64,000 bases of DNA from Patescibacteria group bacterium (GTDB lineage: Bacteria > Patescibacteriota > Minisyncoccia > Portnoybacterales > UBA2143): the NCBI GenBank assembly GCA_018820085.1, contig JAHJOV010000010.1, forward strand, positions 12,179-76,178. Reading direction: 5' to 3'. The notes under the pieces were generated by a model. It was not told the DNA's origin. It made no database searches and saw only the letters and a list, made by a program, of their open reading frames with translations. How positions within the stretch are numbered: position 1 is the first letter of the stretch; each line of letters starts with the position of its first letter. Position numbers and translations under genes: made by a program. Shown here piece by piece: positions 31,376 to 32,952 of the stretch.

Positions 31376-31472
31376 TATATACTATGGTAATGTTTAATAT
31401 TACCAAAATGGGTTGTACTAGGGGTTAGCGGCAAAGCACCTTCCCATTAAAAGAAAGGAGGAATGGAAAACG

Positions 31473-31496
31473 ACTATAAGCGCTGAATGGATTGGA
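31473..31496 (+). CDS. Candidate 7-aa leader peptide (MENDYKR) preceded by an RBS and a hairpin-motif copy
   Basis: aaaggagg, then atg gaa aac gac tat aag cgc tga. Sits between UTR motif copy 1 and copy 2. Confidence 0.2.
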
Positions 31497-31507
31497 GTTT
31501 TAGTAAT

Positions 31508-31552
31508 CCCTGCCACTAGGGGGTAGTGGTAACGCACATTAACAAAAAGGAG
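31508..31552 (+). promoter_or_regulatory. Conserved 5'-UTR hairpin element, copy 2 (ccact-AGGGGGT-agtgg, then TAACGCACATTAACAAAAAGGAGG)
   Basis: Near-identical element at 32904-32952 with a compensatory stem change (ccacT...Agtgg versus ccacG...Cgtgg). A partial relative is at 31425-31450. Each sits directly upstream of an RBS and start codon. Confidence 0.55.
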
Positions 31553-31561
31553 GAAAATAAG

Positions 31562-32791
31562 ATGGAATGGAAAGTTTTGGCATTAATCGTGGGGGCATTA
31601 ATTGTGGGATTTCTTTTGGGTCTTGGTGCTGCTTATGTTTTAAGAATAATCCAGGCAAAGACAGCCAAAGAACTGGCCGCAGAACTATTCCAAGCGAGTG
31701 AGGCTCAGCGCAAAGAGAATGTAGAAAATCTTGTTGCCAACATCAAAGCGATTTTTGGCCAACTGTCGCTTGATGCCTTATCAAAGTCTACTGACGAATT
31801 TCTGAAGTTAGCCAAAACAACCTTGACTTCAGAAAGGGAAATAAGTGTTAAAGAATTAGAGACAAAAAAAGGCCTGATTGATCAGCGATTAACACAGATG
31901 AACACGGCGCTGGAAAATGTCTCTGGTCTGATGAGGGAACTGGAAAAAGACCGGGCAGGAAAGTTTGGGGAATTAGCTAGTCAGTTAAAAGAAGCGGGCA
32001 AACAGACCGCTACTCTGGCTCAAACCACCGCTGCTTTGCACGAGGTTCTTTCAGCTACCAAAACAAGAGGGCAATGGGGAGAAAGGATGGCCGAAGATGT
32101 CTTGCAGGCAGTTGGTTTTATTGAGAACGTAAACTACCTGAAGCAGAAAATGATTGTGGAAGTTGGAACAAGACCTGACTACACTTTTCTTTTGCCAGGG
32201 GAACTTAAATTAAATATGGATGTAAAATTCCCCTTAAATAACTACCTGAGATTTATCGAAGCTGGAACAGAGGTGGAAAAGGAAAAATTTCGCCTTGATT
32301 TTATGAAAGATGTCAGAGCCAGGATTAAAGAGGTAACTACCCGCGACTACATCAATCCTGAACAGAATACCCTTGATTTTGTGATTATGTTTATTCCTAA
32401 TGAACAGATTTACACCTTTGTCCATCAGCAAGATAGCACAATTTTTGATGAAGGGATGAAAAACAAAGTGGTGATCTGTTCTCCAATCAATCTTTTTGCT
32501 GTTTTGGTAGTCATTCGTCAATCAATTGACAATTTCGCTTTAAGTCAGAAGGCGAATGAGATGCTGTCCTTGTTTGGAGCATTTAAAAATCAATGGGAAA
32601 AATTTACCTTGGCCTTGGAGCAAGTAGGGAAGCGGATTGAGGCGGCCCAAAAAGAGTATGAGGCCCTCATCACAACCAGACGGAGGCAACTGGAAAGACC
32701 TTTAAACAAAATAGAAACCCTGAGAACCCAACGCGGCTTACTTGTCGCCCCTGAAGAGGAAGAATCTTTGGTTAGTGAATCGGATGAATAA
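31562..32791 (+). CDS. RmuC-family DNA recombination protein-like (N-terminal TM, coiled coil, C-terminal nuclease-like domain)
   Basis: Starts at MEWKVLALIVGALIVGFLLG (TM), then a long coiled coil and the RmuC-like core PDYTFLLPGELKLNMDVKFPLNNYLRF. The ORF track extends to 31526, but the RBS fits the ATG at 31562. Confidence 0.55.
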   Translation: MEWKVLALIVGALIVGFLLGLGAAYVLRIIQAKTAKELAAELFQASEAQRKENVENLVANIKAIFGQLSLDALSKSTDEFLKLAKTTLTSEREISVKELETKKGLIDQRLTQMNTALENVSGLMRELEKDRAGKFGELASQLKEAGKQTATLAQTTAALHEVLSATKTRGQWGERMAEDVLQAVGFIENVNYLKQKMIVEVGTRPDYTFLLPGELKLNMDVKFPLNNYLRFIEAGTEVEKEKFRLDFMKDVRARIKEVTTRDYINPEQNTLDFVIMFIPNEQIYTFVHQQDSTIFDEGMKNKVVICSPINLFAVLVVIRQSIDNFALSQKANEMLSLFGAFKNQWEKFTLALEQVGKRIEAAQKEYEALITTRRRQLERPLNKIETLRTQRGLLVAPEEEESLVSESDE

Positions 32792-32903
32792 ACCGGAATA
32801 AAAGGGTAAGTGTTTACTTACCCTTTCTCTATTGTAGTCATCTAGGACATTGGATTGCTTTTTTTGTATAGATATGTTAGGGTCGCAAAATAGGTTGGTA
32901 ATT

Positions 32904-32952
32904 CCTGCCACGGGGGTGTCGTGGTAACCGCACATTGACAAAAAAATAGGAG
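32904..32952 (+). promoter_or_regulatory. Conserved 5'-UTR hairpin element, copy 3
   Basis: cctgccacgggggtgtcgtggtaaccgcacattgacaaaaaaataggagg, immediately upstream of the ATG at 32961. Confidence 0.55.

Follow-up and report, generated by a model that had tools for sequence, protein, structure and literature searches.

In the gp43 operator of bacteriophage T4, a hairpin and an adjacent single strand overlapping the Shine-Dalgarno (SD) sequence form an autogenous translational operator. The Correia elements of Neisseria are promoter-bearing intergenic repeats. BoxA sequences are documented in mRNA leaders and in CRISPR leaders, and their consensus drifts between phyla (PMC5725501, PMC7665894). 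The element described here resembles each of these systems in part. It lies in a 64,000-nucleotide stretch of DNA (the window) from a Patescibacteria group bacterium, i.e., a member of the Candidate Phyla Radiation (CPR), and precedes two consecutive genes, namely one of the RmuC family and one whose product combines a coiled coil with a helix-hairpin-helix (HhH) motif. A sequence-only reading of the window had noticed a similar hairpin upstream of both. This hairpin does not stand alone, but is the core of a promoter and leader cassette of ~120 nt, in which a -35 element TTGCTT is followed by an extended -10, an optional 5′ hairpin, the motif AAUCCC, the conserved hairpin, a box CGYACAUUNACAAAA, and the SD. 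The same cassette is found before RmuC and Gam-type genes of related genomes, where its conservation exceeds that of the genes downstream.

As in the T4 operator, a small hairpin in the cassette is followed by a conserved single strand that reaches the SD, in the case of Gam that of a DNA-metabolism gene of phage ancestry; unlike the T4 operator, this leader serves several unrelated proteins. Thus, a factor that binds the leader cannot simply be the product of the downstream gene. BoxA/nut leaders, i.e., rrn boxB-boxA, the suhB 5′ untranslated region, and those of ParE-like toxins and CRISPR arrays (PMC5725501, PMC7665894), also have a single-stranded box after a stem-loop, beside the SD and less than 50 nt from the start codon, and also precede accessory or foreign-type genes; the boxes are identical in part (GY-C-UU-A-A). 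They differ in that the cassette has two A-for-U replacements in the pyrimidine core, relative to a consensus that may not be the CPR's own, and in the strong conservation of its hairpin; in rrn, boxB can be dispensed with. The dual CsrA/RsmA sites, with GGA in a loop and in the SD, share with the cassette a G-rich-loop hairpin 25-30 nt upstream of a GGA-containing SD; here, however, the loop sequences are GGG(U/G)G and UGGUA, and none contains GGA. Correia elements are comparable as ~120-nt units with a promoter and a transcribed stem-loop that precede different genes and undergo exchange at their border. In contrast to them, the cassette has no terminal inverted repeats or target duplications that we could see, is constant in orientation and distance, supplies the SD, and is restricted to one class of genes.

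Searches for a described family gave no counterpart. With Rfam 15, two tRNAs are the sole matches at gathering level in the window; in a permissive scan of 30900-33100, no overlapping family scored above SNORA38, which reached 21.6 bits where 60 are required, and a scan of seven related loci returned only tRNAs and noise. Our literature search likewise found no description of the element. It is new within the broad class of conserved cis-regulatory leaders, and is notable for its CPR lineage, for a conservation above that of its genes, and for its position at a junction of gene exchange.

Both hairpin strings quoted in the sequence-only reading are present in the window (copies B and C, Table 1), the first starting one base away from the position given. 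The window has two matches to the pattern CCTGCCAC-N9-GTGGTAAC, where shuffles predict 0.14, and a count of two was reached in 1 of 100 shuffled windows; copies B and C are the only two hairpin copies it contains. The hairpin had been described as a 5-bp stem with a 7-nt loop. The hairpin stands, but its actual dimensions are a GC-rich 8-bp stem, UGCCACNR/UNGUGGUA, closing a G-rich 5-nt loop, GGGKG. The T:A to G:C difference between the copies is real, and is located at the seventh stem pair. The similarity between B and C also extends beyond the quoted strings, to a 5′ flank T(A/G)GTAAT(C/T)CC (TRGTAATYCC), to a 3′ box CGCACATT(A/G)ACAAAA, also written CGCACATTRACAAAA, and to the SD. For copy C it further takes in a promoter homologous to the RmuC promoter of the relatives.

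Each of the two genes is predicted to have its own promoter (Table 1). That of the second unit is homologous to the TTGCTT-N17-TAAAAT promoters of loci L001a, L002b, L170 and L195. That of RmuC can be aligned to promoters of the form TTGCTT-N17-TAATAT/TAAAAT in L001, L002 and L170, and was not called by a consensus promoter scanner. Its -35 region is tandemly duplicated (31341-31356 and 31360-31375); that is, window 31341-31375 contains a perfect 16-nt tandem duplication, CAATTTGACTTTTGTA, with 19-nt spacing. A terminator-like hairpin after RmuC, the only terminator that the scanner called near the leaders, separates the two transcription units. The box contains TTGACA, which was considered as a -35 element; no -10 follows it in any copy.

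Downstream, the box leads straight into an extended SD, AAAGGAGG, which is mostly unpaired in the predicted ensemble, its pairing probability being low and inconsistent across 8 leaders. The loops observed in the conserved hairpin are GGGGG, GGGUG, GGGCG, UGGUA and (C)GGUG. In most genomes an AU-rich 5′ hairpin, with a loop of 1-6 nt, precedes this core, and shows one compensatory change from A:U to G:C (L195/L196) and one U:G wobble (L161b); both working copies in the window lack this 5′-terminal hairpin but keep the internal stem-loop. The palindrome TTACC-N5-GGTAA was found nowhere else in the window. Variants of the post-stem linker are shared within a genome, namely GAAGAAC in both copies of L002 and UAAC(C) in window B and C.

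The spread of the cassette was assessed in 160 RmuC loci from genome and metagenome collections, and in loci of Gam and of a neighboring reverse transcriptase (RT). Altogether, 11 distinct copies of the hairpin were recovered, namely window B and C, L001, L002 a and b, L161 a and b, L170, L185, L195 and L196. All of them lie in Patescibacteria-type contigs, and a twelfth leader, L205, has only the box. Orientation and distance to the SD and start codon are the same in 12/12 instances. Among the 160 RmuC loci, the motif is present only in L001, L002 (= L082) and L081, the last being the window itself; it is absent from RmuC relatives of other phyla, at 70% identity or less. RmuC itself is widespread, but the searched collections contain only three close RmuC relatives (86-90% amino-acid identity), namely L001, L002 (the same as L082, and the same species as L162) and L161, from Patescibacteria-labelled or groundwater assemblies. 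The motif precedes RmuC in each of them, and in L002 and L161 a second copy precedes the next gene.

A search with the Gam protein of L161 gave more than 160 clusters at 63-100% identity, and most of the named sources are given as Patescibacteria group bacterium. Loci were inspected at three levels of identity to this protein. At 82% (L185-L194) a weakened version of the element occurs, at 68% (L195-L204) there are two variants of it, and at 66% (L205-L212) the hairpin is absent and GCACAUUGACAAAA is kept 40 nt before the SD; one source names the latter Gam as that of Candidatus Nealsonbacteria. An identical Gam protein (P0241) directly follows tRNA genes in L195, L198 and L200, and comes after a 545-aa gene in L196, L199 and L203. 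The two upstream sequences cease to match precisely at the -35 element. The motif search in related genomes that the sequence-only reading had proposed thus finds the element before RmuC and/or Gam-type genes, and also in unrelated neighborhoods. A covariance model built from the 11 copies (R2) detected no further ones in the 64-kb window or in ~99 kb of CPR loci, and none was found in ~1 Mb of RmuC loci from other phyla. In a viral collection, scans with two DNA patterns and one Gam protein gave chance matches only, and blastn of phage records gave no match.

The leader is under stronger constraint than the coding sequence behind it. At the Gam loci its core is 75-88% identical, whereas four-fold degenerate sites are 22-51% identical; for L002 against L195 the values are 86% for the leader and 22% for the four-fold sites of Gam. 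Since the core lies so far above the Gam four-fold sites, we conclude that the cassette is under constraint. Between the window and the RmuC relatives the difference is modest (~87% against 74-76%). Conservation is distributed in blocks, which comprise both promoter elements (the -35 and the extended -10), the two 5′-hairpin arms, AAUCCC, the stem-loop and the box, whereas the promoter spacer, the 5′-hairpin loop and the post-stem linker (3-8 nt) vary. Such a block-wise pattern marks selection on several functional parts, and a recent copy does not account for it.

To what extent the stem is conserved as a structure is a separate matter. Stem cells are paired in 97-98% of cases, versus 20-75% when the partner columns are slid, and in the outer two pairs the pairing is owed largely to purine/pyrimidine composition. 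The inner six pairs show three kinds of change, i.e., U:A for G:C in window B, U:G for C:G in L170, and G:U for A:U in window C and L002b. All of these maintain pairing in the plus-strand RNA, and all except that of window B break the DNA dyad. The sequence-only reading took the compensatory pair as a sign of selection on RNA structure; the change is genuine, but it cannot carry the weight placed on it. Because the stem is conserved mainly in sequence, it is equally compatible with a DNA palindrome. On the other hand, the loop of the 5′ hairpin varies in length, which makes it a poor fit to a dimeric DNA-binding site; the GG of the main loop is conserved to the same degree as the stem arms, as are AAUCCC and CGYACAUU on either side, and a conserved loop, flank and single-stranded box would make sense on a transcript. 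Overall, we consider it somewhat probable that the element acts as RNA.

The account to which we lean, tentatively and with confidence that stops just short of the midpoint, is that of a conserved Patescibacteria promoter and 5′-leader cassette whose leader binds a factor, and which stands directly before a small set of DNA-end and recombination genes, namely those for Gam-family end-binding proteins and RmuC and those that have replaced them. A sigma-70-type promoter, TTGCTT-N17-TAAAAT, would initiate a leader of ~70-80 nt from the predicted start site. On the RNA, the stem-loop and the box would jointly be recognized by a single trans-acting factor with sequence specificity. As the box is immediately next to the SD, the bound factor would control the access of ribosomes and, through it, the fate of the mRNA. 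All genes bearing the cassette would respond together, and in the window RmuC and the coiled-coil/HhH gene would be co-regulated despite the terminator between them. In the predicted ensembles the SD is not sequestered, and no terminator follows the hairpin, so a classical switch is unlikely. The earlier suggestion of a protein-binding site or small riboregulator would be a reasonable description of such a leader.

Several observations weigh against a factor-binding RNA leader. The sample is small, with ~7 independent sequence types. A single main-stem pair changes on both sides, in one event among 11 copies, and the covariation scores are matched by ~10% of column shuffles at 11 copies, or ~2% at 7 copies. 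The stem is near-invariant across lineages whose synonymous sites are saturated, although more compensatory turnover would be expected if pairing alone mattered, and the pattern fits a 6+5+6 DNA palindrome as well, with half-site centers 11 bp apart. Folding of the hairpin is no better than that of shuffled sequence in local context (z ~0), and the hairpin of L185 has a 1-nt deletion and an A.C mismatch. Finally, no candidate for the trans-acting factor was identified. A bolder form of the same idea, which we regard as possible but doubtful, is that the cassette represents an undescribed, Patescibacteria-specific class of cis-regulatory RNA. Its stem-loop and BoxA-like box would be the shared control point of a regulon of Gam, RmuC and HhH genes for the handling of DNA ends, read by a dedicated RNA-binding factor or by lineage-specific Nus machinery, and it would also act as a homology anchor for the exchange of downstream genes between strains.

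The same conservation could instead reflect a DNA operator, in which a dimeric repressor binds the palindrome CCACGA-N5-TCGTGG just past the start of transcription, in roadblock or promoter-proximal fashion, with ATTACCAA/TTGGTAAT as a second site at +1; promoter and operator together would then define the regulon. Roadblock operators are known between the -10 and the SD, which is where the element lies. Its two arms are almost invariant in sequence across deep divergence, half-site centers spaced by about one helical turn are an ideal geometry for a dimeric regulator, the only double change (window B) preserves the dyad, and the shuffle controls show no significant covariation. Nonetheless, we consider such an operator unlikely, if well worth keeping in view. 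Although the dyad is present and conserved, three single-sided changes in its core (C to T in L170, A to G in window C and L002b) break it while maintaining RNA pairing. Conservation of the loop GG and of the flanks at the level of the arms, a spacer of 1-6 nt in the 5′ palindrome, and the retention of the box alone in L205 are likewise not what an operator would predict, and no regulator gene travels with the cassette at the loci examined. Retention of the box alone counts in favor of a BoxA/nut-like leader. There, CGYACAUUNACAA would be a diverged BoxA for NusB/NusE (S10) and the stem-loop its boxB-like partner, and loading of Nus factors would make foreign-type genes resistant to termination or, as in E. 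coli suhB, repress translation at the SD. The E. coli rrn BoxA is UGCUCUUUAACAA, and the box agrees with it at 10/13 positions. It also agrees with 8/10 specified positions of the consensus GYTCTTTAANA, including the C/T-variable second position, and lies <50 nt from the start codon (PMC5725501). The box follows a hairpin, in the same order as in rRNA leaders, and the 23S leader of L198/L203 has a candidate, GAACUUUGACAA, ~17 nt after a hairpin, that matches the L002-type box GUACAUUGACAA at 10/12 positions. This candidate, however, is predicted to be inside a hairpin, and the Gam box of the same genome (L195 type) matches it at only 8/12; 12-position matches with up to 2 mismatches are common by chance in the window. 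In addition, the pyrimidine run is broken by A at two positions in every copy, and the strong sequence conservation of the stem-loop is left unexplained. We therefore give this interpretation little credence.

No more credence, in our view, is due to a passive expression cassette, in which no factor is involved. That is, the hairpins would stabilize the 5′ end of the mRNA or serve as processing sites, the A-rich tail would be a landing pad for ribosomes, and identity would be kept by gene conversion or cassette exchange. The SD is indeed free and extended, the start of transcription is predicted within or just before the 5′ hairpin, which is the classic position of a 5′ stabilizer, and copies of one genome have linker variants in common. 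Moreover, genomes with 94-99% identity to either side of it have exchanged the gene that follows copy b, the left junction of the exchange falling within the leader, and the P0241 Gam protein occurs in two contexts that part at the -35. A stabilizer should nevertheless covary freely, whereas stem, loop GG and box are conserved in sequence; both working copies of the window have lost the 5′-terminal hairpin but retain the stem-loop, which is internal and not at the 5′ end; and all genes with the cassette belong to a single functional class. A further explanation, the residue of a local tandem duplication with a compensatory pair arisen by chance, had been named at the outset as the case that would refute a regulatory element. 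A recent local duplication upstream of RmuC did occur, as copy B and a decayed copy (A) share the T:A pair, and the covariation statistics are weak. Yet the element is found in at least 6 other sequence contexts, including genomes without the RT and without a nearby RmuC, and is more conserved than the genes it precedes. Recurrence and conservation above the coding sequence contradict this explanation, which we regard as scarcely tenable.

Established classes of element were also compared with the cassette and set aside. A riboswitch, SD-sequestering switch or thermosensor is rejected, as there is neither consistent SD pairing nor a U-tract terminator, and a ligand pocket of several helices is rejected because only one constant helix of 7-8 bp is present. 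An intrinsic terminator or attenuator is excluded by the A-rich tail, without a U-run, that follows the stem, and a CsrA-type site by the lack of GGA in any hairpin loop. In terms of a strict BoxA, GYACAUUNACA matches 8/10 of GYUCUUUAANA (PMC5725501), with A at positions 3 and 5 in 12/12 leaders. Miniature inverted-repeat transposable elements and Correia-like repeats are disfavored by the single orientation, the fixed distance to the start codon, and the absence of copies elsewhere in ~160 kb of CPR sequence. A LexA box of the Gram-positive type (GAAC-N4-GTTC), a sigma-54 promoter (-24/-12), RfaH ops and the guanidine-III motif were rejected by eye for wrong spacing or too few matches. By eye, too, a flank-to-loop pseudoknot CCC:GGG is sterically possible, with one informative change (U:G in window C) and one pair broken in L170, and a loop-to-tail pseudoknot (GGUG:CAUU or GUG:CAC) was dropped because window copy B does not maintain it.

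The sequence-only reading had also listed a partial relative of the hairpin upstream of copy B, and had noted a candidate 7-codon leader open reading frame (ORF), MENDYKR. The relative exists, but it is located at 31415-31440 rather than 31425-31450, and it is a decayed copy of the full-length cassette rather than a partial one (copy A). It retains a good promoter (31364-31393), and is further composed of what is left of the 5′-hairpin arm, ATATTACCAAAAT, of a hairpin that has degenerated by deletion of its 5′ arm (31415-31436), and of a remnant of the tail. Its SD (31457-31461) and ATG (31463) open the MENDYKR ORF (31463-31486), 3′ of which is ATGGATTGGAGTTTTAG, resembling the start of RmuC. 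Neither covariance model detects copy A. Because it shares the T:A variant with copy B, it stems from a recent tandem duplication in the lineage of the window. Copy A and its ORF are without counterpart in the relatives L001, L002 and L161, and the ORF also in L170. The ORF thus exists with its SD, but occurs in the window only, inside a decayed duplicate; since its position is not conserved, a leader-peptide attenuator is rejected.

Table 1. Positions of the cassette copies, promoters and neighboring genes, numbered from the first letter of the window
Feature	Position	Strand	Basis or remark
Retron-type RT	30011-31015	-	Best PADLOC match RT_II-A, 2.6e-41; below every NCBIfam cut-off
Predicted RmuC promoter: -35 TTGACT (31364-31369), 18-nt spacer, extended -10 TGGTAATGT (31385-31393)	31364-31393	+	Read from sequence
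Copy A, decayed cassette	31395-31486	+	Alignment and repeat analysis
Copy B, 5′ flank UAGUAAUCCC	31501-31510	+	Alignments; AAUCCC nearly invariant among copies
Copy B, string CCTGCCACTAGGGGGTAGTGGTAAC	31509-31533	+	Sequence pattern match
Copy B, hairpin UGCCACUA / GGGGG / UAGUGGUA	31511-31531	+	Covariance model hits, 77.3 and 67.3 bits
Copy B, single-stranded box CGCACAUUAACAAAA, into SD GGAGG	31533-31547 (box); 31549-31553 (SD)	+	Alignments
First cassette gene, RmuC family, 409 aa	31562-32791	+	Pfam RmuC, E = 2.4e-68
Terminator-like hairpin after RmuC	32801-32826	+	Terminator scan; conserved in L002 and L161
Predicted second-unit promoter: -35 TTGCTT (32855-32860), 17-nt spacer, -10 TAGGGT (32878-32883)	32855-32883	+	Read from sequence
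Copy C, 5′ flank UUGGUAAUUCC	32895-32905	+	5′-hairpin partner arm missing here
Copy C, string CCTGCCACGGGGGTGTCGTGGTAAC	32904-32928	+	Sequence pattern match
Copy C, hairpin UGCCACGG / GGGUG / UCGUGGUA	32906-32926	+	Covariance model hits, 77.9 and 68.5 bits
Copy C, box CGCACAUUGACAAAA, A-run, SD GGAGG	32929-32943 (box); 32949-32953 (SD)	+	Alignments
Second cassette gene, 403 aa, long N-terminal coiled-coil hairpin and C-terminal HhH	32961-34172	+	Weak HHH_5 / RNA_pol_A_CTD matches

The genes found behind the cassette are RmuC, three diverged alleles of Gam (45-82% mutual identity), the coiled-coil/HhH gene, and an unknown 212-aa gene in L170, whose product has marginal colinear similarity to Gam (E = 0.11). 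In the window, the coiled-coil/HhH gene fills the slot that holds Gam in the relatives, without being related to the L002 Gam. Its product was modelled with AlphaFold from the single sequence, and the model is confident for helices 6-173 only; neither this model nor sequence searches of the PDB revealed anything beyond the coiled coil and the HhH. The slot after RmuC contains a 182-aa Gam in L002 (5448-5996) and another Gam in L161 (2047-2583), the two being 47% identical in a BLASTP local alignment, while the flanking DNA of L002 and L161 is 94-99% identical. Nucleotide similarity of the window to L002 and L161 ends at the end of the leader and resumes at ~34288-34432, about 100-350 nt past the gene. 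The leader is therefore the left border of an exchangeable slot. Past the exchangeable gene there is a conserved block with a GC-rich hairpin and a box, TTCGAACTATTTTCAGAATAG (window 34288-34432; L002 3858-3885 and 6217-6250), and an inverted copy of this box, CTATTCTTAAAATAGTTCGAA, is found just upstream of the RmuC -35 in L002 and L161. Thus, in these two genomes the two-gene unit is bracketed by inverted boxes.

Two side observations concern the surroundings of these genes. In CPR loci, toxin-antitoxin genes of the AbiEii/AbiEi type adjoin Gam or the RT (L185 3313-5191; L205 2347-3569; L165 69-930), which suggests that Gam and RT genes lie in defense or mobile islands. Furthermore, the RmuC loci L017, L085, L087, L089 and L099, from other phyla, share a different conserved leader, GGAUGUUUGCAAACGAGUUCUUGAGGAGGAUUCUAUG, in which a terminal hairpin would, by prediction, occlude the SD; it seems that several lineages have an RmuC accompanied by a regulatory leader.

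The element had been proposed to coordinate two genes divergent from a retron-type RT. The shared element is upheld, but its link to the RT is not. The RT family comprises 23 clusters at 45-91% identity, and its neighbors are a divergent RmuC (window, L002, L161), the motif-bearing 212-aa gene (L170), a helix-turn-helix gene (L171), PP2C (L165-L169) and a convergent downstream RmuC (L163). RT relatives at 70-78% identity have other neighbors and no motif; the motif is absent from L163-L169 and L171-L173 and occurs, among other RT loci, only in L170 and L162. Conversely, it is present without the RT in L001 and L185-L204. Like a retron msr-msd, the element is a structured non-coding region adjoining a retron-type RT; unlike it, the element belongs to the leader of a different gene, on the other strand from the RT, is absent beside RT relatives and is present without an RT. 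An msr-msd non-coding RNA is therefore rejected as its identity, the motif being in plus-strand mRNA leaders with no co-occurrence with the minus-strand RT, and no msr-msd was identified near the RT.

The DNA around the RT has features of its own. L170 has an unbroken segment where the window, at 31208-31283, carries a near-perfect palindrome of 66 nt, ACCCCGTTAGAAATTT...AAATTTTTAACGGGGT. In L170 the sequence reads gctgtcaagccaaaagaat, whereas the window reads gctgTCAA, the palindrome, and TCAAaccaaaagaat; this looks like a small palindromic insertion with a duplication of TCAA. A conserved non-coding block, gcacaagatgagatata..aaactagctcaaatgcaagggaaaatagtcag, is located upstream of the RT promoter in the window (31130-31353), L170 and L171, and downstream of the RT in L002 (2208-2335); it could represent the non-coding RNA that is otherwise missing for the RT, or one end of a mobile element. 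Just past the 3′ end of the RT, L002 (2535-2610) and L162 (11128-11203) have a tRNA-like gene (55.5 bits), for which Rfam shows no counterpart at the equivalent place in the window.

Little is known of gene regulation in the mostly uncultured CPR bacteria, and the cassette provides a concrete handle on it, with 75-88% identity upstream of genes whose synonymous sites are largely or wholly randomized. From it follows a regulon of DNA-end or recombination genes that can be tested, it points to a putative trans-acting factor, and its covariance model can be run on thousands of metagenome-assembled genomes. The border between promoter and leader is also a point at which near-identical strains exchange genes of the Gam type, and so is relevant to the turnover of accessory genes for DNA metabolism and defense in tiny genomes. 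Were the BoxA-like interpretation true, a very distant lineage would have to be added to those in which Nus factors control non-ribosomal genes.

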